A stretch of 64,000 nucleotides of DNA from an uncultured Dehalococcoidia bacterium (GTDB lineage: Bacteria; Chloroflexota; Dehalococcoidia; DSTF01; JALHUB01). Below, piece by piece: positions 7,401-31,157 of the stretch. A program made the position numbers and the translations under genes. The stretch's first letter is position 1. Each line of letters opens with the position of its first letter. Under the pieces are notes generated by a model that was not told the origin of the DNA, did not search any database, and worked only from the letters and a program-made list of their open reading frames with translations. The stretch covers positions 82,941 through 146,940 of the forward strand of contig CAZMGB010000006.1 of the NCBI GenBank assembly GCA_964565775.1. Direction: 5' to 3'.

Positions 7401-10272
7401 CCGGGTCGTCGCCGATGCCCGCGACGCCAGGGGCAACGATGTCCACAGCGCGACATCGGTGTGGGTGAGCAGCGGCGAGTACGTAAGCTGGCGCGTCACT
7501 AACGACGACCGCATCGAGCTTGTGGCCGACAAGGCCGAGTACCAGCCGGGCGACACCGCCCGCATCCTCGTCAGCGCGCCCTTCGAGGGCAGTATCGGCC
7601 TTGTGACCGAGGAGCGTGGCAAGATCCTGAGCAGCCACGTCCAGGACTTCGAAACGAACAGCACGATCCTTGAGGTGCCGATCAGCGAAGACGACGTGCC
7701 AAACGTCTTCGTCTCCACGGTGCTCTTCAAAGCGCCGACCGCCGATAACCCGATGCCCGCCTTCAAGGTCGGCTACGTGGAGCTACCCGTCTCGATCGCC
7801 GAGAAGAAGCTGTCCATCACCATCGAGCCCAGCGCCGAACAGCTCGAGCCACGCGACGAGATCAGCTACACGATCACGACCCGCGACAGCAGCGGCAAAG
7901 GGGTGCCGGCGGAGGTGACGCTGGCCCTGGTCGACAAGGCGCTCCTCTCACTCACGGATCAGCAGGGCCAGGGCGCCCTCGAGGCATTCTGGAGTCGCCG
8001 CGGCCTGGGCGTCACCACGTCCTCCGCGTACACGGTCTCCATCGACCGTGCCAATGAGATCTCCCTGTCGCGCGAGGGCGGGGGCAAGGGAGGCGGCGGT
8101 GGCGGCGGCGCTCCCGGCGAGAGCCGTACCTTCTTCCCCAACACCGCCTACTGGAACCCCGATCTCCACACCGACGACAACGGTCGCGCCACGGTCACCG
8201 TCGAGCTTCCGGATACGCTGACGACATGGCGCCTGACCGCTCACGCCCTTACCAAGACGACGCAGGTGGGCGACGGCACCAATGAGGTTGTGACCAGCAA
8301 AGACCTCATCGTTCGCCCCGTTGTGCCCCGCTTCCTCATCGCCGGGGACACGCCTACCCTCAAGGCCATCGTCCACAACTTCTCGGACAAGGACCGCGAG
8401 GTGGAGGTGACCTTCTCGTCGGACGTGGTATCGCCGTCGGGCGAAAAGACGCAGAAGGTAGCCGTCGCCGCCGGCGAGCTGGGGGAGGTGAGCTGGGAGA
8501 CGACCGTCTCCCAGGACACGAGCGCCGACCTCAAGTTCGACGCCAAGGCCGGGGGTGGGCTCTCGGACTCGGTCGACGTCAGCGTGCCCGTGTACGAGTT
8601 CGTCTCGCCGGAGGTCACGGCCAGCGGCGGCGAGGTGGTGGATGAGGCCACCGAGGCCGTGAACCTCCCCTACTACGTCGACCCGTCCCGCGGCGAGCTC
8701 ACCGTGGACGTCGCTTCATCCCTCGTGGCCGGACTCGACGAGGGGCTGCACTCCCTCGAGGAGTACCAGTACGAAAGCGCCGAGCAGACGGTGGGCCGGC
8801 TGATCACGCGCCTGGCGCTGCACCGCGCCATCACAGAAGCAGGGCTGCCCGACACCCTGGGCATCAGCGAGGACCTGGACGGGCTGGTCGCCCGCTCGAC
8901 GCTGCGCCTCTACAGCGACCAGCACTTCGACGGCGGCTGGGGCTGGTGGATCAACAGCCCCAGTGACCCCTTCCTTACGGCCTTCACGATGTTCGGTCTG
9001 GGCCAGGCCATCCACGCGGGCTACACCGTGGACGACTTCGCACTGGAGAGGGCCAGCGATTACCTGCGTCAGGAGCTCGACCGCCCCTTCGACGTGGAGA
9101 GCCCCCAGGACCCCGACCTGCGGGCCTTCATCCTGCTGGCGATGGCCGAGGCGGGCCAGGGCGACCTGGGCCGCACCTATGCCCTGGCGGAGCAACGGGC
9201 CACCCTGGGACCCTTCGGCATGGCATCGCTCATAATGGCCATCCAGGAGCTCAGCCCCCAGGCCACGGACGACCCGAGGCTCAAGACGCTCATCTCCGAC
9301 CTCACGAACGCCGCCATAACCAGCGCCACCGGCAACCACTGGCAGGAGGAGACGCCCGACTTCGCCATCATGGGGACGAACGCGCGCGCGACGGCGGCCG
9401 CCCTCAGCGCCTTGATGCGCGTCGACCCCAATCACCCGCTGGTCGACGAGACGGTGCGCTGGCTCATGGTCGCACGCAGCGCGTCCGCCTCAGGCGGATG
9501 GGAGACCACCCAGGAAACTGCCTTCAGCGTCCTCGCCCTGGCGGAGTATATGGTCGCACGCGGGGAGTCGGGCGACTTCTCATATCGTGTCGAGGCGAAC
9601 GGCGAGACCGTAGGCGAAGGGGACGCGAAGGCCAGCGAGCCCGCCGCGACGAACGAGGTGACGGTCGAACTCAAAGACCTGCGCATCGGCGAGGAGAACC
9701 TGGTTCGCCTGGTGCGCACGCCGCCGGAGAGCAAGGGTAGACTCTACTACACGATGCACCTCCGCTATTTCACCCCCGCCGAGGACGTGGAGGCGGCCAG
9801 CCACGGCGTCGGCGTCGGACGCGACTACCTGCCGGCCGAGGGGGCGGCGGCAAGTATCGAATCGGTGGCCGTCGGCGACCTCGTCAAGGTCCGCCTTACC
9901 GTCTATGCGCCCACCGACCTGCACTTCCTTGTCGTGGAGGACTTCCTGCCGGCCGGCCTGGAAGCCGTCGATACCAGCCTCAAGATCACGAGCATAGAGG
10001 TGCGTGAGCTGCTCGCGGAGGAGCAACGCCGCATCTACGAGGAGCAGCGGCGCCAGGGGCTGTACTTCAACCCCTTTACGCACGTCGACATCCGCGATAA
10101 CCGGGTGGTGCTCTTCGCGAGCTTCGTCCCCAAGGGCACCTACGAGTACGTCTACGTCGCACGCGCCACCACAGCGGGCGAGTTCCACCTGCCCCCCACC
10201 AACGCCTTCGAGACGTACTTCCCCGAGGTGTGGGGGCGGACGGACGGTAGCCTGTTCACGGTGACCCCCTGA
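4408..10272 (+). CDS. Bacterial alpha-2-macroglobulin family protein (MG domains, A2M domain)
   Basis: The ORF 4288..10272 overlaps the PBP. The likely start is GTG 4408, preceded by aaagggga, and it opens an N-terminal TM anchor (VNALLSAARKPRFLIAAVIIALVL). The A2M hallmarks GGGKGGGGGGGAPGE...FFPNTAYWNPDL...TTWRLTAH are present. The thioester position reads YESAEQT rather than CxEQ. Confidence 0.85.
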   Translation: MNALLSAARKPRFLIAAVIIALVLASVGGGLAYMLTRPPSECPEGLCVESVSPTGDDVDRTTPVTIKFLSGVDKDKAEGALRVSPEAKGTLSWKENTLTFVPEWPGFARGVAYEVELATPEAHLPQGEPVSFSFATAGKLKVESVVPDPDATEVSITADLMVQFNRSVAPLTVLEEAPQGQILEFDPPVQGEGRWVNSSLYSFKPDGGWQPATHYVVTAPAALTDVLGGSLEKDYVWSFETVLPAVAEVSPADNAEFVGPLQAVKVTFNQPMDRAAAEAAFSLVSESSGASPTGSFSWSDDFTLVFKPSSPFEPEARYAATMPAGVPNALGSASTAGEERWSFTTVGPPRVASSDPANGETQASRFGVSIDFSNPMVRASVEDNVSLEPEPEDGPYFWWEMPNTLHIGLTFKPSSPYTVSLDGAKDRYGQPLPPFTVSFVTEPVEPSLSVMRSGQSGTYNAYLEPRVVARAINVSRVDFALYRLDRDTFVRFESQYNAASEYAPPATDLIRRWSENITNPPLDSPVTVSSDLLGVGGGKLDPGFYFLEVSAPGATYSDTIPLVVSKTNLTLKRTDTSLLVWALDMSTGQPLADLSLEIIDWQGKHIGDGTTGSDGIFEGTLPKPAPEDAYRPFFVVGDRPGDVALASSQWSAGISPWDFDLPAAYTTLDYAGHVYTDRPLYRPGETVYYKGILRTDDNAKYGLPPADPGATLSITDSMGHEILSSKIELSDYGTFDGELDLGPEASTGYYSIRIVMNEESIAWGSFSVAEFRKPEFEVDLSTDRDAYVNGDSIKADVTATYYFGAPTADSQVKWNVTSQDYIFRPDDYPEYSFIDFDQYESRFYGQPRSEGEGRTDAEGAFAFETPANVSSDLVSQAFRVEATVTDVNEQEVSASKEVVVHKADFYVGLKPEGYVYSAGEPAAVDIVSVDPEGKPRPDTPMTVSIFRRRWITARVSEPDGEQHYQSEPEDTLVEKHDVTTGSDATASVTFTPDKGGEYRVVADARDARGNDVHSATSVWVSSGEYVSWRVTNDDRIELVADKAEYQPGDTARILVSAPFEGSIGLVTEERGKILSSHVQDFETNSTILEVPISEDDVPNVFVSTVLFKAPTADNPMPAFKVGYVELPVSIAEKKLSITIEPSAEQLEPRDEISYTITTRDSSGKGVPAEVTLALVDKALLSLTDQQGQGALEAFWSRRGLGVTTSSAYTVSIDRANEISLSREGGGKGGGGGGGAPGESRTFFPNTAYWNPDLHTDDNGRATVTVELPDTLTTWRLTAHALTKTTQVGDGTNEVVTSKDLIVRPVVPRFLIAGDTPTLKAIVHNFSDKDREVEVTFSSDVVSPSGEKTQKVAVAAGELGEVSWETTVSQDTSADLKFDAKAGGGLSDSVDVSVPVYEFVSPEVTASGGEVVDEATEAVNLPYYVDPSRGELTVDVASSLVAGLDEGLHSLEEYQYESAEQTVGRLITRLALHRAITEAGLPDTLGISEDLDGLVARSTLRLYSDQHFDGGWGWWINSPSDPFLTAFTMFGLGQAIHAGYTVDDFALERASDYLRQELDRPFDVESPQDPDLRAFILLAMAEAGQGDLGRTYALAEQRATLGPFGMASLIMAIQELSPQATDDPRLKTLISDLTNAAITSATGNHWQEETPDFAIMGTNARATAAALSALMRVDPNHPLVDETVRWLMVARSASASGGWETTQETAFSVLALAEYMVARGESGDFSYRVEANGETVGEGDAKASEPAATNEVTVELKDLRIGEENLVRLVRTPPESKGRLYYTMHLRYFTPAEDVEAASHGVGVGRDYLPAEGAAASIESVAVGDLVKVRLTVYAPTDLHFLVVEDFLPAGLEAVDTSLKITSIEVRELLAEEQRRIYEEQRRQGLYFNPFTHVDIRDNRVVLFASFVPKGTYEYVYVARATTAGEFHLPPTNAFETYFPEVWGRTDGSLFTVTP

Positions 10273-10297
10273 GTAATCAACGCCGGAGGACTGTCAA

Positions 10298-10325
10298 GGG
10301 CCGCCCCTGACTAACGGGGCGGCCC
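10298..10325. terminator. Bidirectional intrinsic-terminator-like hairpin between convergent genes
   Basis: A perfect 10-bp stem gggccgcccc / ggggcggccc with an 8-nt loop sits directly after the A2M stop. It is GC-rich and lacks a T-tract. Confidence 0.4.
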
Positions 10326-10504
10326 TTCGACCATTCGGCCGCGCTCAGGGCAGGCAGGCTCAGGGTGCGGAAGCGGCGCTCGACGGCAAGGGCCATGCAT
10401 GATGACATGCTGAGATGACGGCATGCTGAGCATGTCGAAGCACCGAGCGTGAGGGACGGCCGCATTCTCGAAGCAATGACGACCGAGGAGATCGCCTCGC
10501 CCGT

Positions 10505-11398
10505 CTAGCCCTTCAGCGCACCTGCCGTCAGGCCCCGCACGAGCTGACGCGAGAAGAGGATAAGGAGAATCAGCATCGGCAGCGCCGCGATGACGGTGCC
10601 CGCCATCACGACATTCAGCGAGTCGATCTCACGGCCGTGGAGCGCCTGCAGGCCGATCTGCACCGTGCGCATGCTGTCCTCGTTGGTCACCAGCAGCGGC
10701 CAGAGGTACTGGTTCCAGGCCTGGAGGAAGGCGAAGACGGCCAGCGCCGCAAGAATGGGCCGCGAAAGGGGAATCACCACGAACATCAGAAACCGGCCGT
10801 GACCGTAGCCGTCGATGGCCGCGGCGTCCCGCAGCTCCTGAGGGATCGTCATGAAGTGCTGTCGCAGCAGGAACGTGCCGAAGGCCGTCGCCAGGAAGGG
10901 CACCGTCAGACCCTGATAGGTGTCGAGCCAGCCCAGCGTCTGAACCGTCTGGAAGTTGGGGACGATGGCCACCTCCCAGGGCACCATCAGCGTCGAGAGG
11001 AAGAGGACGAAGAGAGCGGTGCGGAAGGGAAAGCGCAGGAAGGCGAAGGCGTAGGCCGAGAGCGACGCCGTCACCAGTTGCCCGACGACGATGACGGTCG
11101 ACATGACGAGGCTGTTAAACAGGTATTTCCCCAGGGGCACGGAGCTCATCGCTTTCTTGAAGTTGGCCCACTCCGGATGCAGGGGAAAGAGCTTCGGCGG
11201 GTAGGAGATGACAGACTCCTTGGGCAGGAGGGCGTTCACGACCGCCATATAGATGGGCAGCACGACGATGGCCGCTGCCAGCAAGAGGACGCCGTAGCGC
11301 ACCGCGTAACCGACCCAGCGGCGGCGCCCGCCCTCGATCTTCCTCGCTGCGACCGACTCTCCAACCGCGCTCATCGATGCCTCACCGGTAGAACACAC
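10505..11398 (-). CDS. Carbohydrate ABC transporter permease (MalG/UgpE-type)
   Basis: 297 aa with six TM helices. An EAA-like motif (AAIDGYGHGRFLMFVVIPLSRP) is present. It overlaps the upstream permease by 17 nt. Confidence 0.85.
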   Translation of the reverse strand: MCSTGEASMSAVGESVAARKIEGGRRRWVGYAVRYGVLLLAAAIVVLPIYMAVVNALLPKESVISYPPKLFPLHPEWANFKKAMSSVPLGKYLFNSLVMSTVIVVGQLVTASLSAYAFAFLRFPFRTALFVLFLSTLMVPWEVAIVPNFQTVQTLGWLDTYQGLTVPFLATAFGTFLLRQHFMTIPQELRDAAAIDGYGHGRFLMFVVIPLSRPILAALAVFAFLQAWNQYLWPLLVTNEDSMRTVQIGLQALHGREIDSLNVVMAGTVIAALPMLILLILFSRQLVRGLTAGALKG

Positions 11399-12329
11399 GC
11401 CGCTCCAGGAGACGGAGCTGGATGCCCGTAAAAGCCAACACCAGCAGGAACAGGCCCACCGCCTGCACCGCGGCCACGCCGTAGTCGAAGTTCTGGAACG
11501 CGTCCTGCCAGATCGCGTAGACGATGACCGTGGTGGCGTCCAGGGGGCCGCCCCTCGTGAGGATGTGTATCTGGCCGAAGGATTCGAATGCCAGGATAGT
11601 GCCGACGACGAACACGAATAGAAGCGTCGGCGAGAGCATGGGCAGCGTCACGTGCCAGAACTGGCCCCAGCGTCCGGCGCCGTCGATGCGGGCGCTTTCG
11701 TACAGCTCCTCCGGGATCGACTGGAGCCCCGCCAGGATCACGATCATCGCCAGGCCCAGGTTGAGCCAGATGGTGGTGAGAGAGACGGCGAATAGCGCCC
11801 AGTCGGGATCGTTCAGCCAGTTGACGCGCGGCAGCTCCGCCTGGGCCAGTATGTAGTTGATGAGGCCGGTGCTCGGGTTGAGCAGCGTCAGCCACATGAG
11901 GGCCGCCACGGCCACCGACGTTGCCACCGTCGACGAGAAGAGGACACGGAAGACGCCGATCGCCTTCAGCTTCTGGTTCGCCAGCAGCGCCAGCAACATC
12001 CCCAGGAAGATGCCTGCCGGCACCGTGTAGAGGGAGAAGATAAGGGTGATCCAGAGCGCGTGCCGGAAATCCTCAGAGGTGAGAACAGAGCGGTACTGGT
12101 CGAGGCCGACGAAGTTGCCCGTGTGCCCGAAGGGGTCTGTCTCATACAGGCCCAGCCAGACAGACTTGACGAGCGGGTAGAAGACGAAGGTGCCGAAGAT
12201 GATGAGTGACGGCAGGAGGAAGATCATGGAGAAGGCAAAGCGCCTGGCGGCGTCCAGCCACCTCAGCGCCACGCTTGGCGGCCGCCAGGCGGCGATGAGC
12301 TCCGCAGTCTTCGCGTCGACGGCGCTCAC
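11382..12329 (-). CDS. Carbohydrate ABC transporter permease (MalF/UgpA-type)
   Basis: 315 aa polytopic membrane protein. It carries the EAA-loop ESARIDGAGRWGQFWHVTLPMLSP. Confidence 0.85.
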   Translation of the reverse strand: MSAVDAKTAELIAAWRPPSVALRWLDAARRFAFSMIFLLPSLIIFGTFVFYPLVKSVWLGLYETDPFGHTGNFVGLDQYRSVLTSEDFRHALWITLIFSLYTVPAGIFLGMLLALLANQKLKAIGVFRVLFSSTVATSVAVAALMWLTLLNPSTGLINYILAQAELPRVNWLNDPDWALFAVSLTTIWLNLGLAMIVILAGLQSIPEELYESARIDGAGRWGQFWHVTLPMLSPTLLFVFVVGTILAFESFGQIHILTRGGPLDATTVIVYAIWQDAFQNFDYGVAAVQAVGLFLLVLAFTGIQLRLLERRVFYR

Positions 12330-12360
12330 GGCGTCCTCTCCCGACTACGTATTCCCGTCA

Positions 12361-13458
<1,098 letters not shown>

Positions 13459-24298: not shown

Positions 24299-24615
24299 GC
24301 ACCTCTCTCCGGGCCGGCGCGAGGTCCCGGCCCCCAGATACAGTCTTCACCACAGTCCGTAAGGTTGGAGCGGGGGACGGGACTCGCCCGGACAGGCAGG
24401 CCCGGACCCGCGACAACCTGCTTGGAAGAAGAAGGGTTACGCCTCCGAATCATGTCGGCCCGTCCCGGCCCTCTCCTTTCGCGACGGCCGGCCCGTCGCC
24501 TCTACTAGACACTACCGCAGACGTGCGTCTGGGGAAACCGGCTTTGCTCGGCGAAGAGCAGGCCAGCGGTCTTCTCGCACTCGATGTGGCGGACGGACCA
24601 TGCGGGAGCCACCGC

Positions 24616-26154
24616 TCAGCCATCGGCCGCTTCGTCTCCTGACGGTGCGAAGGCGGGGGCAGGAACGGGGGCCTGGATTTGTTGCGGCCCTCGCAGCGCC
24701 GAGAACAGAATGCCGATCAGCAACACGGCCATCGCACCATACATGGCGACATGGACGCCGTCGAGGAAGATGGGCGTCACCTCCCCCCTTATTGCAGGGT
24801 TGTTGACGGCCCCCTGAAGGCTTCCTTCGAACCCCTGCGACACCAGCCGCGAGGTGACGAGCGTACCCCACAGGGTGATGCCCAGCGAGCTTCCCGCGTT
24901 GCGCATAGTCGCAATGAAGCCGGATGCCACGCCGTACTGCTCACGTGGCACGGAGCCGAAGATGAAGCTGTTGTTGGGGGACTGGAACATACCAAAGCCC
25001 AGCCCCAGGAGAATCAACGTGCCAATGATGGGAGCGTAACCCTGGTCGGCGGTGGTGACCTGGGAGAGAAGGAATAGACCCGCCAGCGACATCGACAGGC
25101 CGGCTGTGGCGAGACCGCGCGAGCCGTAGCGGTCGGACCAGCGACCGCTGAGCGGCGCGATCAGGGCCATGGCGAAGGGCACCGTCGTCAAGAGAACACC
25201 CGCGGTCCGGGCGCTGAGCGCCAGCGCAATCTGGAGGTAGAACGGCATGAGAAAGGTGCTCGCCTGCTGAGCGACGAACGACGAGAAGCTGGCGGTGCAG
25301 CCCGCCGAGAAGCCCCAGATGCGGAAGAGGCTCAGGCGAATCGTGGGGTATGCGTTCTTGAGCTCGACAGCCACGAAGACGACCACCAAGACAAGGCTGG
25401 CGGCGAACATGGCCAGGAGAGCCGGCGAGCTCCAGCCGATGTCCGGGCCGCGGTTCAGCGCGAACAGGAGCATGAAGAGGAAGGCAGCCCAGAGAGCCGC
25501 GCCCAGCAAGTCGAAGGGTTCGCGCCTCGCGCCACGGCCAAGGGAGATGCGCTCTTCCCTCAAGACCAGAGACGCGAAAGGAATGGACAGCAGCCCGACG
25601 GGCATGGCGACGAAGAAGATGGAGCGCCAGCCCAGCGCATCGGTCAGCACGCCGCCGATAGTGGGGCCGGTCACGAGCCCGGCGGCCACGATCGTCCCGT
25701 TGAGCCCAAGGGCCTTGCCCCGCTCTTCCGGCGGGAAGACGGCCGCGGTGATCGCGGCGCCGTTGGCCTGGATCATGGCGCCGCCGACGCCGGTCAGGGC
25801 CCGCGCCAGGATGAGCTCGGTGACGCTGTGGGAGAGGCCCGCCAGCACGTTGCCCGCGGTGAATACGACGAAGCCTGCGATGTAGACTCTCTTGCGCCCC
25901 ATGAGATCAGCAAGGCGCCCGAAGGTCAGGAGGAGGGAGGTGATCGAGAGCAGGTAGGCCAGCACAACCCACTGGATCGCGCTCAGGTCTGCGTGCAGGT
26001 CGCCCATGATGCGGGGCAAGGAGATGTTGACGATGCTGATGTCCAGGGTGGACATGAAGACGCCAACAGAAACGGCGGCGAGGGCCCACCACTTGTGTTG
26101 GGGGCCCTCGGCGGCGCGTCCAATCCTCCGCATCAAATCGACGGGGTTTCGCAT
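24616..26154 (-). CDS. MFS transporter, DHA2 (EmrB/QacA, 14-TMS) drug:H+ antiporter family
   Basis: 512 aa with 14 predicted TM helices. The motif GRLADLMGRKRVY is present. Confidence 0.85.
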   Translation of the reverse strand: MRNPVDLMRRIGRAAEGPQHKWWALAAVSVGVFMSTLDISIVNISLPRIMGDLHADLSAIQWVVLAYLLSITSLLLTFGRLADLMGRKRVYIAGFVVFTAGNVLAGLSHSVTELILARALTGVGGAMIQANGAAITAAVFPPEERGKALGLNGTIVAAGLVTGPTIGGVLTDALGWRSIFFVAMPVGLLSIPFASLVLREERISLGRGARREPFDLLGAALWAAFLFMLLFALNRGPDIGWSSPALLAMFAASLVLVVVFVAVELKNAYPTIRLSLFRIWGFSAGCTASFSSFVAQQASTFLMPFYLQIALALSARTAGVLLTTVPFAMALIAPLSGRWSDRYGSRGLATAGLSMSLAGLFLLSQVTTADQGYAPIIGTLILLGLGFGMFQSPNNSFIFGSVPREQYGVASGFIATMRNAGSSLGITLWGTLVTSRLVSQGFEGSLQGAVNNPAIRGEVTPIFLDGVHVAMYGAMAVLLIGILFSALRGPQQIQAPVPAPAFAPSGDEAADG

Positions 26155-26303
26155 CCGAGTCTCGCTAGCACACCGGCGAAGCTGGTCTCACTTCCTGGCC
26201 ATAGTCGCAGGCGAGAAGCCCGCTGTGCAAGAAGGCCTGCGGCGCCCTCTTCGTCCAGAGTAGGGACTGCCATGGGTGAGTCGGAAGAGGGCAGAAGTGA
26301 ATG

Positions 26304-26378
26304 TGGAGCGGGGGACGGGACTCGAACCCGCGACAGCCTGCTTGGAAGGCAGGAGCTCTACCACTGAGCTACCCCCGC
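26304..26378 (-). tRNA. tRNA-Gly (anticodon UCC), 75 nt including encoded CCA
   Basis: The reverse complement GCGGGGGTAGCTCAGTGGTAGAGCTCCTGCCTTCCAAGCAGGCTGTCGCGGGTTCGAGTCCCGTCCCCCGCTCCA folds into a cloverleaf. It has a 7-bp acceptor stem, a D arm, the anticodon loop CTTCCAA (anticodon TCC) and a TTCGAGT T-loop. Confidence 0.85.
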
Positions 26379-26498
26379 TGGTGCCTCATTCTAGCATGGC
26401 GGCAAGCGGGCAACCAGAGCGATTCCGGCGCGAGGGCGCTGCCGGGGCCCGGTGTGCGGTCGCGGTCGCGTGGCCGACAGCGGCGCAGCGAGCTGGGA

Positions 26499-27374
26499 TC
26501 ACACGAGCCCGACTTGTTTTCGTTCGCCCTCGCTGAGAAGGTCAATTGCCATTATTTTGCCCGCTGAAGCGTGGTCCCTATCCGGCAGGAAGGCCAGGTG
26601 GAGTAGGGGATTCTTCTTCAGGTCTGGAACAAGTACCCAGTGCATGACCGCGATCTCACCCGAGTCGTAGCGTGATTGTCGCAAGAGTTGGGCAAGGAAC
26701 GCGAGATAGCCTCCTGGAAACGGCCGTCCGCCGCCTAAGGGGTCGGTGGGATCTGCAAGGCGGAGGATAACGCTGACCCACACGAAGATATCCGAAAACC
26801 TGTGGCCGCTGTAGAAGTGCCCAACTCTAGACTCACGTGTTAGGTTGAAAATGGCATCCACAGTGTAGGCAATAGTATCGTGTCGTAGAAACTTGTGGAT
26901 AGGCGAGTCGGCGGCAAGCTCGGCGTGGAGCCGTTGCAGGACTGCGCCTATGTGACTTCGGATGGCAGGGTGATCCTTCCAGATTAGCAGTATGTCTGTC
27001 GACGAACAGTCAGGGTGTTGGCAGCGTCCAGCTAGGAAGCGGGTAAGAGAACCGCCGCCCGGCGAGTCGGTCAAGATTATCGTCTTGTCTGGATAGAAGC
27101 CGCGAATAGAGGACGGTCCGGCAAGAGTAGCGGAGTCGGCCCAGGTGCCGCACAGAGGACAGATGCCGCGCAGGCTGTCCGTGACTTCTTTGACCAGTTC
27201 CTTACCGGAGAGGCGTCCGTCCATTAAGCGCTGGACAATTGCGTCGTAGTAGTTCGGGATGTCTAGAATGGCTATCCGGCTCCAGGTATGTCCGGATTGC
27301 ATGGATTGGAGAAAGTGAGATAGTTCGGAAGGCTTCCGTGGGGGAGTGGGCAGGGAAAAGGAATGAATGTCCAC
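26499..27374 (-). CDS. Hypothetical protein in a lower-GC islet bounded by tRNA-Gly repeats
   Basis: 291 aa with no recognised domain. Local GC is about 55-58%, against about 68% in the flanks. Confidence 0.4.
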   Translation of the reverse strand: MDIHSFSLPTPPRKPSELSHFLQSMQSGHTWSRIAILDIPNYYDAIVQRLMDGRLSGKELVKEVTDSLRGICPLCGTWADSATLAGPSSIRGFYPDKTIILTDSPGGGSLTRFLAGRCQHPDCSSTDILLIWKDHPAIRSHIGAVLQRLHAELAADSPIHKFLRHDTIAYTVDAIFNLTRESRVGHFYSGHRFSDIFVWVSVILRLADPTDPLGGGRPFPGGYLAFLAQLLRQSRYDSGEIAVMHWVLVPDLKKNPLLHLAFLPDRDHASAGKIMAIDLLSEGERKQVGLV

Positions 27375-27695
27375 TCTTCAGGCTCCGCTATGGCACAATC
27401 GCTTTGCGTCCGGGGCACACGGGAATTGTAATACAGATGTCAAGAGCGCGCCGTGTTTGGGGCTTGGTAGCGAAGGGGAGCCATGTCCATCGGCGGGTGG
27501 TCGGGATGTTTGCTGAGCCCAGCTCAGTCGCGTGGGGCGAAGATGCAGCCGCGACCGGGAGGTGGAGAGCGCCAGAAGCCGACCGGGGATGGGGGGCCAG
27601 CTATGGTGTGTTGGAGCGGGCGGTGAATGCTTGATAACTGTGGCCATTTCGGTTTGGGGTGCGCATTCCGGGGCTCAGCGCAGATGTTCGGATGT

Positions 27696-27732
27696 TTGGA
27701 AGGCAGGAGCTCTACCACTGAGCTACCCCCGC
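27696..27732 (-). repeat. Direct repeat: copy of the tRNA-Gly 5' half (nt 1-37, 5' end through anticodon loop) plus about 20 nt of diverged upstream flank
   Basis: The 37 nt here are identical to 26342..26378. The similarity continues in diverged form (ctcattctagcatgg against ctctattctagcacgg) into the 5' flank. This is a truncated tRNA pseudo-copy or an att-like repeat. Confidence 0.7.
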
Positions 27733-27955
27733 TCGGCCTCTATTCTAGCACGGACGACGTACTCCAGCGCGCTCCTGCCACCGATCCCGGCACCTCCGAC
27801 GGCAGCTTGACACACCCAAACGCTTCCCGCACACTACCGCACGAACAACCGTCACATATAGCCGTCGTGGTAATCGACTGCCCGCTCGCAGCCGGCCAAG
27901 ACCGCCGCAAGCGACCGGAGCGACGCCGCGGCATGAGCGCAAGGAGGACAGTGCA

Positions 27956-29203
27956 ATGGTGGGATCGCTCAGGCACCGGCGAATGGGCTTTCGTTCCGGC
28001 ACGGGGAGGGCCGGGCGACGAGCCAGGCGGGCGATCCTGGCCGGCGTCGCCCTGTGCCTCATCTCCGTGGTCGGCGTTTCCTGCGGCGGTTCGTCCGAGA
28101 CCGTCTCGCCCTCAGCAACCGCGGGGCCCCCAGCGACCGCGTCGCCAACGGCGCCGTCGAATACGGTCTGGCTGTGCCGTCCGGGGCTCGCCGACAACCC
28201 CTGCGAGAGCGATCTCACGACTACGGTGGTGCCCGCCGACGGCTCGAGCACGACTGAGGCAGCGGCTCCGGCGGAGGACCCGCCGATCGACTGCTTCTAC
28301 GTGTACCCGACGGTCAGCGAGCAGCAGACAGAGAATGCCAACCTCAACATCGACCCGGAGGAGAGGACAGTGGCCATCCTGCAGGCGGCCCGCTTCTCGC
28401 AGGTATGTAAGGTGTACGCCCCGATGTACCGGCAGTACACCCTGTCGGCGATCGCCAAACCGCGTGAGAACAGGTCGGCAACCGTCGACCTGGCCTACAA
28501 CGACGTGCTCTCGGCCTGGCAGGACTATCTCGCCCACTACAACGACGACCGGGGGGTCGTCCTCATCGGCCACTCCCAGGGAGCGGGGATGCTGACCCGG
28601 CTGATCGCGTCCGAGATCGATCCCAACCCGGACGTGCTTCGTCGGCTTGTCTCGGCGCTGCTCTTCGGCGGCAACGTGGAGGTTGCCGTCGGTCAGGATG
28701 TAGGCGGCGACTTCCAGAACGTCCCCGCCTGTCGGTCTGCCGATCAGACAGGCTGTGTGGTCGCCTACTCAAGCTTCCTCGAGGCGCCGCCGCCCGACAG
28801 CGGCTTCGGCAGGGTGGGGGTCGGCCCGCGGGCGACCGAGCAAGCCGATGGGAATCTAGAGGTGCTCTGCGTCAATCCGGCCTCACTCTCTGGGGGAACG
28901 GGGGCACTGCTGCCCTACTTCTTGGCCACTCCGCTCCCCGTAGTGTTTGGTAGCAAGCTGATCGGAACACCGTCCGCGCCAACGCCGTGGCTGGCCTACC
29001 CCGGCCTCTACACCGCCCGCTGCGAGAGCTCCGGCGGCGCCGACTGGCTACAGGTCGACACCACGAACATCGCCGGCGACGAGAGGTGGGTGGCGCAACA
29101 GGTGCTGGGGCCGACGTGGGGGCTGCACCTCGTCGATATCAACATCGCGCTCGGCAACCTGGTGGACCTCGTTCGCCAGCAGACGGCTGCGTTCTCGCAG
29201 TGA
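27956..29203 (+). CDS. DUF3089-like alpha/beta-hydrolase lipoprotein
   Basis: 415 aa. It has a signal peptide plus a lipobox (GVSC), the esterase-like motif GHSQGAG, and a Pro/Ala/Thr-rich linker after the lipobox. Confidence 0.6.
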   Translation: MVGSLRHRRMGFRSGTGRAGRRARRAILAGVALCLISVVGVSCGGSSETVSPSATAGPPATASPTAPSNTVWLCRPGLADNPCESDLTTTVVPADGSSTTEAAAPAEDPPIDCFYVYPTVSEQQTENANLNIDPEERTVAILQAARFSQVCKVYAPMYRQYTLSAIAKPRENRSATVDLAYNDVLSAWQDYLAHYNDDRGVVLIGHSQGAGMLTRLIASEIDPNPDVLRRLVSALLFGGNVEVAVGQDVGGDFQNVPACRSADQTGCVVAYSSFLEAPPPDSGFGRVGVGPRATEQADGNLEVLCVNPASLSGGTGALLPYFLATPLPVVFGSKLIGTPSAPTPWLAYPGLYTARCESSGGADWLQVDTTNIAGDERWVAQQVLGPTWGLHLVDINIALGNLVDLVRQQTAAFSQ

Positions 29204-29311: not shown

Positions 29312-30481
29312 TCAGGCCGTAGCAGACGCCGTCGGAGTCGGCGTTGACTGTGGGTTGGGTGCCCACGTATACGGCGGCCTGGGCACGGGAGTAGCTGCTG
29401 GCGGCTTCCCCCCCGCATTGCGGAGACGGGCCCGGACATCCGGCAACTTGGCCGCGGTCTCCGGGTCATTGAAGCTGCCTCGGTGGAGCGTCAGGTAGTC
29501 GATCTGGTAGCCCCGGCTGAAGATGTCGTCGATCAGCTCATCAAACCCCTCGCCGGTGCGTGGATATGCCGCGATCTCCATGGCGATCTTCGTCTTGTCC
29601 TGGTACGCCTGGAAGATGTCCACCACATCCCCAACGAAGCGACCGCTGTTCTGCTGGAGATACATGCCCTTGTCGACGGCATACGCCGAGGCGTCCTCCA
29701 TGATGTTCCAGCCGATGAAGTTGATCATGAGGGCCAGCTCAGTGTGCGGGAAAGCGTCGTGCCAGCGGTCAATCCAGTACTTCACAGTGGAGAGGTTCTC
29801 TTCAGGTGTCCAGTCCGGGGGCCTGAACTCGGCCGGCGAGGCCCATACCATCTCACCGTATTCGCCCATGCCGGCGTTCGTCTGGAAGTACTCGATACGC
29901 GGATCACCGTCGTAGCGAGAGCCAAGTGCTTTCAAGAATGCGCCGAACTTCGCTGTGAATACCGGGTCCGTCGGCACCGGTTGCCTCATGCCGTTGTCGC
30001 GCGAAAACTCAGTGTTGTAGTACCACTCCGCTCCCGCATCGAACACCCAGCTTGGCGTAGCCTGCCCAAAGCCTGCGACGTTCGTATAAACGCGGGGGAT
30101 GGCCGTCTTGCCTGCGCTCGCGGCGGCCTCAAGAGCCTGGTCGAGCGCATCCCAGTTGTACGCGCCCTCCTGGGGCTCCAGCGTGGCCCAGTAGAAGAGG
30201 GGGTTCGGGCCGGCTGCGTAGGGGCTGGTGTAGCCTGGGCCGGACATGAGCGCATCGAAGACAAACAGGCCCGAGCCGGCATTGGTGGAAAGGTGCCCCA
30301 TCCCGTGGAATTCGTAGATGATCAGGCCGAGAACCAGGACGGCCAGCGTTCGGACGGGGATGCGGGACGCTGCGCCGGTGACGATAATGCGAAGCCTCTG
30401 GCCGCCGAGCGCGGTATAACGGGGCCAGTGACGCTCGCGGTTCTGTTCGCCCAATGCTCGCCCATTGTCGCGATGCCTCAT
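29312..30481 (-). CDS. Membrane-anchored TIM-barrel glycoside-hydrolase-like protein (family not resolved)
   Basis: 389 aa with an N-terminal TM helix. The catalytic-looking region resembles GH (beta-galactosidase/cellulase-type) barrels, and there is a C-terminal Pro/Thr tail. This is a low-confidence functional call. Confidence 0.35.
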   Translation of the reverse strand: MRHRDNGRALGEQNRERHWPRYTALGGQRLRIIVTGAASRIPVRTLAVLVLGLIIYEFHGMGHLSTNAGSGLFVFDALMSGPGYTSPYAAGPNPLFYWATLEPQEGAYNWDALDQALEAAASAGKTAIPRVYTNVAGFGQATPSWVFDAGAEWYYNTEFSRDNGMRQPVPTDPVFTAKFGAFLKALGSRYDGDPRIEYFQTNAGMGEYGEMVWASPAEFRPPDWTPEENLSTVKYWIDRWHDAFPHTELALMINFIGWNIMEDASAYAVDKGMYLQQNSGRFVGDVVDIFQAYQDKTKIAMEIAAYPRTGEGFDELIDDIFSRGYQIDYLTLHRGSFNDPETAAKLPDVRARLRNAGGKPPAATPVPRPPYTWAPNPQSTPTPTASATA

Positions 30482-31157
30482 TGGGAGCTACCTCGCCCTT
30501 GGCGCGTCCCGGCCAGCGACTGAGCAGCGGCGGAGCAACTCAGCCCTACCCTGCCCATGAGGGCGATTGCAGGCTCGCTCGCCAGCGACCAACGAGGCGG
30601 GACTCAGCGCGCCGCATCGCTTGGGACGGGGCCAGTACGGGCATGTCGTGACGTGGTCAACAAGTGCACAGCCCTCGACCGTCCCGCGGTTGGCGCCTGC
30701 CATGCCAGGGTAGCCAAGCCCACCCTGGCCGCTTCGGGGTCGACGTTCCCGGACCGCCGGTGGTGTGAGCACCGGCGATCCCTTCACGCCCGTAATGGCA
30801 GACTACTCCTGGCCAGAGGAGTTGTCAAGAGTAGCAGGCTAATGGCCTCGATGGCCCTGCGTCGTTGTCTGAGCACAGGTAGTGGAGAACGCCTGTCTGA
30901 TGCGAGTATCCCATTCCTCCATGCCGGGCCAGGCGGCCTCCCACTCGTACTCGGGGCCGGGTGACTCAGGATGTCAAGCCTGCAAATGGAGCACGGGCGC
31001 CATGCCGTGACGCCCGCTTCTTTCCTGGAGATGGGAAGCATCGAGTGTGATGCGCTTGAAGAATCCGAGACAAGGGAGTAGTGTAACCCTCGCATCGGCA
31101 GAGGAACAGCCTCATCAACCGGAAAGTGGCGACGATTCCTAGGGATAGGAGGCGAAC

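Follow-up and report, generated by a model that had tools for sequence, protein, structure and literature searches.

A 64,000-nt stretch of the genome of an uncultured Dehalococcoidia bacterium (contig CAZMGB010000006.1, positions 82,941 to 146,940; hereafter the window) contains an intact tRNA-Gly(UCC) gene and, 1354 bp away from repeat to repeat, a second copy of the 5′ half of that gene. Between the two lies an islet made up of two non-coding arms and one cargo open reading frame (ORF), ORF291. A divergent DUF3089 gene stands upstream of the tRNA, and a second islet with a major facilitator superfamily (MFS) transporter gene occupies its 3′ side. Our data suggest that the ORF291 islet and its two tRNA copies are very probably the junction pair of a reversed site-specific integration, in which a small element entered the anticodon loop of tRNA-Gly(UCC).

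Table 1 Features of the tRNA-Gly(UCC) locus in the window, and integrase-bearing loci in related DNA.
Feature	Position or length	Strand	Evidence or content
Intact tRNA-Gly(UCC)	26304-26378	(-)	ARAGORN; Rfam 72 bits
Displaced 5′ half of tRNA-Gly(UCC), nt 1-37	27696..27732	(-)	Exact 37-mer repeat; ends at anticodon loop 3′ end
Native upstream flank of displaced half, chromosomal side of attL	27733..27753	(-)	Direct reading; TGCTAGAAT at 27750->27742, 9 nt before nt 1
Element L-arm	27590..27695	(-)	ACATCC…GCGCTG…CCGAAA-N7-CAGTTATC, with CAGTTATC at 27640->27633, then decayed inverted repeat
Element R-arm	26379..26475	(-)	R′ box ACGCGACCGCGACCGCACACCGG at 26449-26471; element-borne TGCTAGAAT at 26396->26388, 9 nt before tRNA
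Cargo ORF291	26499-27374	(-)	tRNA orientation; 291 aa from GTG start; 267 aa in public annotation (P0001)
DUF3089 gene	27956-29203	(+)	Divergent neighbour upstream of tRNA
Second islet, 3′ side of tRNA	24433..26303	(-)	Bracketed by full tRNA and 3′ fragment; without integrase
MFS transporter gene	24616-26154	(-)	Single gene of second islet; Pfam MFS_1 8e-68
3′ fragment of same tRNA-Gly	24366-24428	(-)	From first anticodon-loop base (CTTCCAA) to CCA
L009, tRNA-Gly-UCC	6.36 kb		315-aa XerD-like tyrosine recombinase, Rep-like protein, MmeI-family restriction enzyme; far-end 5′ fragment
L067, tRNA-Gly-UCC	5.7 kb		Integrase at tRNA 5′ end, Rep_trans, Mrr; far-end 5′ fragment
L069, tRNA-Gly-CCC	6.1 kb		Integrase at tRNA 5′ end; far-end 5′ fragment
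L076, tRNA-Gly-CCC	4.8 kb		Integrase at tRNA 5′ end; far-end 5′ fragment
L071, tRNA-Gly-CCC			Integrase at tRNA 5′ end; far end outside contig
L072-L074, tRNA-Ala-UGC	1.55 kb, 8900-10447		Integrase only; far-end 5′ fragment; three assemblies
L075, tRNA-Ala-UGC			Integrase at tRNA 5′ end; far end not visible
L068, L070			Contig stops within 5′ part of a tRNA

An initial annotation, made from the sequence alone, had placed the tRNA gene here and noted that its first 37 nt recur. ARAGORN and Rfam both recovered the gene, which ARAGORN reported as tRNA-Gly(tcc) and as the sole tRNA in the window. A 61-nt direct repeat (26339-26399 and 27693-27753, 87% identical) contains two exact copies of tRNA nt 1-37, at 26342-26378 and 27696-27732, the only two in the whole window; none would be expected by chance (0 in 100 shuffles, with up to 3 mismatches permitted). 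On the tRNA strand, the two copies agree from nt 1 up to and including the final anticodon-loop base (…CCTGC CTTCCAA), at the loop/stem boundary named in the annotation. The first base past it is a G in the tRNA (CTTCCAA-GCAGG) and an A in the displaced copy (CTTCCAA-ACATCC), so that the junction at the displaced half reads …CCTTCCAA|ACAT… (CCAA|ACAT). A group I intron or a split tRNA was rejected as an explanation, since the islet is followed by a whole tRNA gene that has a 5′ half of its own.

The two copies also share about 20 nt of diverged upstream flank, as the annotation had stated: 17 of 21-22 positions align, with two 1-nt gaps. This similarity centres on TGCTAGAAT, which lies 9 nt ahead of the mature 5′ end in both copies and at an equal distance upstream of native and element-borne tRNA copies in relatives. 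From its sequence and placement, TGCTAGAAT is probably a shared extended -10 promoter box, and similarity of the flanks would be expected because an element entering here needs a promoter box to re-express the tRNA.

The composition of the islet is foreign. Mean GC content in the window is 65.8%, not the 68% of the initial annotation, with a standard deviation of 2.2% in 1296-nt windows. The interval between the repeats (26400-27695) has 59.4% GC, again differing from the annotated figure. The shift itself held up under rigorous calculation: among 1.3-kb stretches of the window this one ranks lowest, and the sliding windows with a GC content as low (0.7%) all overlap the islet. ORF291 has 56.4% GC, and its GC content at third codon positions (GC3) is 0.63, compared with 0.79-0.87 in six neighbouring genes.

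We found the CCAA|ACAT junction, followed by a homologous arm, at 26 other loci that carry at least 10 different cargo sets. These come from two related Dehalococcoidia genome assemblies (L005 and L009) and from 24 metagenome contigs, returned by a metagenome scan with the 24-nt junction as query; the junction pattern gave no match among IMG/VR viral contigs. The break falls at one and the same nucleotide in all 27 loci (the window and the 26 others), and intervals with both ends visible measure 1.35-2.6 kb, L009 excepted. These observations bear on an alternative raised in the initial annotation, that tRNA-Gly and its promoter were duplicated in tandem and the upstream copy then lost its 3′ half to an unrelated insertion. 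The similarity that the two copies show for about 21 nt ahead of the tRNA would fit such a history, but it corresponds to the -10 box, which non-duplicated native genes have as well. A duplication should leave two full copies in at least some relatives and a variable truncation; instead, a second full copy occurs in no relative, the truncation is invariant and is followed by a homologous arm, and integrase-bearing elements sit at the same position. We therefore regard a tandem duplication as extremely unlikely.

Using the DUF3089 neighbour as query, we recovered 39 loci; this gene assigns the organism to uncultured Dehalococcoidia of soil or peat. L009 has the 5′ half beside DUF3089, the full tRNA-Gly 6.36 kb off, and an identical CCAA|ACAT junction, and L005 shows an L009-like architecture with a 2.29-kb interval. 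In L010 the intact tRNA lies directly beside DUF3089, and its flank is homologous to the flank of L009’s displaced half. By this comparison L010 is evidently an unoccupied site, and, because of the same homology, the displaced half appears to carry the native flank.

We also noted an identical 26-nt insertion, (T/G)AGCATGGTGAGCCTGCCGAACCATC, in the D-loop of the displaced 5′ halves of many loci (L005 1092-1154; L043, L044, L046, L047, L049 (twice), L050, L052, L054, L055, L056 and L060). It looks like a degenerate copy of the anticodon arm. A single inherited decay explains it poorly, because at least four upstream flanks and both L049 units have it.

Directly past the junction, about 70-100 nt are conserved. 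This L-arm is common to 21 distinct loci including the window and has the form ACATCC…CAGCGCTGA…CCCCAAGCGAAA-N7-CAGTTATCG, followed by an inverted repeat. Over its first 71 nt, the window L-arm matches L056 at 62/71 positions and L053 at 59/71, and it extends to the integrase-bearing elements L069 (tRNA-Gly-CCC, 53/71), L009 and L067 (46/71 each); the conserved blocks are also present in tRNA-Ala elements. We rejected the L-arm as a structured RNA: RNAalifold predicts no structure, and in Rfam only the tRNA itself was matched, with no hit to the L-arm. When the inverted repeat is specified, 81% of it pairs, by sequence conservation, with one compensatory change and no covariation. The L-arm looks likelier to bind protein than to fold as RNA.

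The opposite end of the islet, the R-arm, is conserved too. In the 110 nt closest to the full tRNA, 86 positions match L043 and L057 (86/110), despite unrelated cargo. The R-arm contains the R′ box, GGCGACGCGACGGCGACGGCA, which occurs once in the window and in 10/76 loci (L044, L046, L047, L048, L049, L054, L056, L057, L062 and L063). All of these are islet loci, and the box stands after at least seven different cargo sets. It was found neither in the integrase-bearing elements examined nor in about 600 kb of other related DNA. The R′ box marks the distal end of integrase-less cassettes with unrelated cargo. A genome-wide repeat of the repetitive extragenic palindrome type was considered and rejected, given the single occurrence in the window and otherwise in islet loci only.

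Four larger elements have the same arm architecture and an integrase beside the intact tRNA: L009, L067, L069 and L076 (Table 1). Across 11/11 loci, members of this integrase clade lie 100-190 nt from the tRNA 5′ end, on the opposite strand and pointing away from it, and where the far end of an integrase-bearing element is visible it consists of a 5′ fragment spanning nt 1-37 to 1-40. In each of three tRNAs, this large XerD-like clade is linked to a defined target, namely the anticodon loop as reached from the 5′ side. The arms of the attachment site have a recognisable sequence. Recombinases of this kind could serve as tools. The 3′ side of the same tRNAs is also occupied, in three arrangements: a conventional integrase directly 3′ of tRNA-Gly (L012 6957-7973), a conventional integrase with an Arm-DNA-binding domain directly 3′ of tRNA-Ala (L072/L073 7515-8711), and a BREX-like gene set 3′ of tRNA-Gly(CCC), located after a degenerate anticodon-arm copy 45 nt past the tRNA (L071 1-9027).

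We propose the following sequence of events. The chromosome before insertion would have had a native promoter and a whole tRNA, with the divergent DUF3089 gene upstream, and the element would have carried an attachment site in which a further copy of tRNA nt 1-37 stood between a promoter-bearing R-arm and the L-arm. Strand exchange by a tyrosine recombinase would then have taken place inside the anticodon loop, within the 7 nt CTTCCAA. This would have pushed the native promoter and 5′ half of the chromosome to 27696-27753, where they now abut the L-arm, while the element’s promoter and 5′ half became joined to the resident 3′ half to give an intact, expressible tRNA. From the architecture and from the comparison of L009 with L010, we infer that the intact tRNA is a hybrid, its 5′ half and promoter coming from the element and its 3′ half being resident. 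The displaced native promoter would face the co-oriented ORF291 and may transcribe it. For genome annotation, the half-tRNA should be treated as a scar rather than a gene, and ORF291, and probably the MFS gene too, as insertions flanked by tRNA fragments.

Integration of an element by crossover in the anticodon loop, which the initial annotation had put forward, is thus supported by the junction and arm shared with 26 loci, by the integrase-bearing relatives, by L010, and by the shift in composition. Several observations weigh against it. Neither tblastn nor the ORF list revealed an integrase in the islet or elsewhere in the 64 kb of the window, in agreement with the annotation’s remark that none is left. 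The window R-arm has no CAGTTAT repeats and has the R′ box instead, whereas the R-arms of integrase-bearing elements lack an R′ box and contain CAGTTAT(A/C)G twice, as a direct repeat; simple internal deletion of an L009-type element is therefore an inadequate account. An empty site, which the annotation had suggested seeking in related genomes, is represented by L010 but was not found in the window’s own lineage. L003 and L004, the closest relatives, have no tRNA near DUF3089, and the closest DUF3089 loci (80-82% identity) either are without a tRNA or have no other neighbouring genes in common. A generic sigma-70 scan gave no -35/-10 pair for either promoter, so that a promoter function of TGCTAGAAT is only putative. 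Finally, the position of the crossover is deduced from analogy and from the limits of sequence identity.

With both arms and only one foreign ORF between them, and no integrase, the islet appears to be non-autonomous: it would be either a fixed remnant or a cassette dependent on an integrase acting in trans. The initial annotation had called the element degraded. One argument against simple decay is that integrase-less islets of 1.35-2.6 kb with both ends conserved are the commonest state at this site. Two further observations disfavour it: in L049, a 5′ half plus an L-arm occurs twice as a two-unit tandem array (9992-12712), and L043 and L049 carry the same cassettes in permuted order, one segment being 97% identical between them and the following one 86%. 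The term degraded may be too simple, and the integrase-less islets may form a non-autonomous family rather than random wreckage. Current mobility of the window islet is itself disfavoured, because the window has no integrase, the R-arm is without the repeats of autonomous elements, and ORF291 evolves almost neutrally.

Cargo in the islets is diverse. It includes a secreted, anchored protein, DUF3089, TIR-pentapeptide and DndB-like proteins, and a zinc-dependent dehydrogenase accompanied by a tRNA-Arg gene. An FkbM methyltransferase is paired with a small ORF, HicB-like by eye only, and a long ORF has an NPPY methyltransferase motif, likewise by eye only. Many cargo genes, with TIR, DndB and MmeI-type domains, look defence-related. 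In the islet with the dehydrogenase (L055/L060), the tRNA-Arg(tcg) is on the opposite strand inside the tRNA-Gly islet, at oriented coordinates 495-570.

Conserved arms around variable cargo could also be read as an ancient, inert scar, with no site-specific recombination since the first event and with its content exchanged by homologous recombination only, the tRNA halves and arms serving as anchors for DNA from relatives. The L043/L049 mosaic and permuted cassette order fit this history, as do the missing integrase in the window and the almost neutral evolution of ORF291. The L049 array and the permuted order are equally expected from site-specific accretion and excision, however, and conservation of the L-arm over elements that target three tRNAs points to an element function rather than shared descent; the R′ box is moreover confined to these islets. 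We consider an inert scar possible, though rather unlikely.

A further question is raised by the 3′ side of the tRNA, where the MFS islet ends at a 3′ fragment of the same tRNA, so that the window tRNA has one islet on each side. With blastn-short, this fragment aligns to tRNA nt 31-53 at 96% and to nt 55-75 at 100%; it contains one mismatch and an insertion of ~18 nt in the T-loop, GTCCGGGC-CTGCCT-GTCCGGGC. The 5′ fragment covers nt 1-37 and the 3′ one nt 31-75, so that they overlap by the 7-nt loop CTTCCAA only, which on this evidence is the expected 7-bp overlap region. A single composite element with its own complete tRNA-Gly, comprising the L-arm, ORF291, the R-arm, the whole tRNA and the MFS gene, might thus have inserted into the anticodon loop of the host gene and split it into 27696-27732 and 24366-24428, with the internal tRNA compensating for the loss. 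Such an element would resemble phage ‘tRNA-dependent lysogeny’ (PMC10865867). In its favour, the two fragments are exactly complementary and bracket 3.3 kb with a full tRNA, and L067 repeats the tRNA/3′-fragment layout, at 7590-7634, with BipA in place of MFS.

Other observations argue for two separate events, a 5′-type islet and a conventional 3′-type islet, which is the reading we favour. Most 5′-type loci (L009, L043, L056 and L057) have no 3′ fragment within 2-3.5 kb downstream. The compositions of the two cargo genes differ, the MFS gene having a host-typical GC3 of 0.85 against 0.63 in ORF291. The 3′ fragment is decayed, with its T-loop insertion, and the 5′ fragment is perfect, which suggests events of different age. 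In addition, integrases of the clade adjoin the tRNA, which fits an att site containing the tRNA 5′ half and not a site 2 kb off. A single composite element is thus quite improbable.

We were unable to identify ORF291, the 291-aa ORF noted in the initial annotation. The search of defence and mobile-element databases suggested there gave no identity: nothing above noise was found in Pfam, PADLOC, PHROGs or NCBIfam. A Pfam scan of 24 members of the ORF291 family, a profile search of the PDB, and an exact-sequence look-up of the window’s own protein returned no match or record. A profile search of a word-indexed database yielded 3 proteins only, and an AlphaFold 2 model built from 3 sequences was unusable (pLDDT 35). 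We found and aligned 172 distant relatives. The family comprises about 170 sequence clusters (50%-identity representatives), with invariant cysteines C72, C75, C118 and C123 and an H245-W246 motif; ORF291 thus appears to be a member of an uncharacterised Cys4 family. A second AlphaFold 2 model reached pLDDT 87, and Foldseek searches with the ORF291 model against PDB and BFVD gave no fold match (best E 0.016 and 0.0095, TM about 0.2). L066, one long contig encoding a distant homologue, gave no functional context. Compared with an 85%-identical homologue in L001 (192-1064), ORF291 has a dN/dS of 0.83, consistent with almost neutral evolution. Homology to L001 includes 191 nt upstream of the gene and ends ~20 nt past the stop codon, which gives the gene module a sharp distal boundary.

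Away from the islet, at ~30655-30830 (-), we observed a conserved leader of ~170 nt upstream of a GH42-like gene (29312-30481, (-)). It is made up of a TTGACA-N17-TAGTCT promoter and, after it, four predicted hairpins, and it also precedes an unrelated secreted-protein cassette gene in L043, L054, L056, L057 and L049. Consensus folding of 5 sequences gave -51 kcal/mol with 2 compensatory pairs (alifold), and the leader has no match in Rfam. It is a candidate cis-regulatory RNA.

The arrangement can be compared with four known systems. Like integron cassettes, the islets contain single, mostly co-oriented genes, arrayed downstream of a fixed promoter, with a conserved recombination unit between genes and an order that varies among related genomes. 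Unlike integrons, they lack both an IntI-type integrase and an attI site. In place of an attC hairpin, the unit that repeats is about 300 nt long and comprises the R′ box, promoter, tRNA 5′ half and L-arm, and covariation is absent from the L-arm inverted repeat. The recombinase found in relatives is of the XerD-like type and is encoded within an element that also has a Rep gene. An integron-like gene-capture platform at the tRNA-Gly(UCC) anticodon loop of these Dehalococcoidia is an idea we hold to be unlikely. It would comprise one- or two-gene integrase-less cassettes with conserved ends (the L-arm at one, and the R′ box, promoter and tRNA 5′ half at the other), which a XerD-like integrase clade specialised on the tRNA 5′ side would insert, stack and shuffle in trans, every insertion leaving a tRNA promoter that would drive the next cassette. 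The locus also makes it conceivable that captured genes are expressed from tRNA promoters which integration has left in place.

Islets that lack an integrase and are flanked by attachment sites, and that can be mobilised in cis, are known for streptococcal integrative and conjugative elements as cis-mobilisable elements (CIMEs). The islets described here likewise have attL- and attR-like flanks and no recombination genes, use a site that is also used by integrase-bearing relatives, and form tandem arrays (L049). Their attachment sites are related to those of the autonomous elements, with a difference on the R side, where the R′ box is a feature absent from the integrase-bearing elements examined, and mobilisation in trans is hypothetical. 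The tandem array and permuted cassette order may give indirect support for integrase action in trans.

Integration sites in tRNA genes (tDNAs) are said to include an anticodon-loop class, among the sublocations that Williams set out in 2002 and reportedly the ‘site A’ of the Islander database. In the window, the identity is bounded by the loop, the overlap is 7 bp, and the symmetric anticodon stem flanks the loop as an inverted repeat, as in the attB of that class. Members of the class usually duplicate the loop and all that lies 3′ of it, whereas the ORF291 islet has duplicated the loop and all that lies 5′ of it; the fragment at 24366-24428 in the window is of the usual type.

Reversed integration is not new. 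Zhao and Williams reportedly described a reversed-orientation tRNA-gene island in 2002. With reversed, 5′-fragment islands as a class, the window shares an intact tRNA with a displaced 5′ fragment upstream in the same orientation and a predicted supply of the 5′ part, and hence of the promoter box, by the element; in the integrase-bearing relatives it also shares a tyrosine integrase beside the regenerated tRNA, consistently at the tRNA 5′ end. Of the 3919 islands in Islander, 159 have a 5′ tDNA fragment and 3760 a 3′ fragment; the database requires an integrase and a length of 2-200 kb (PMC4383910). The window islet differs in its 1.35 kb length, in its lack of the integrase that its larger relatives have within the interval, and in its host, a soil or sediment member of the Dehalococcoidia. 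Standard island finders, with an integrase requirement and a lower limit of 2 kb, would overlook the form that is commonest here. On the sequence evidence, the window feature joins this known minority class, and with its relatives makes a well-populated example of a rare, reversed tRNA-gene integration from a poorly studied phylum.

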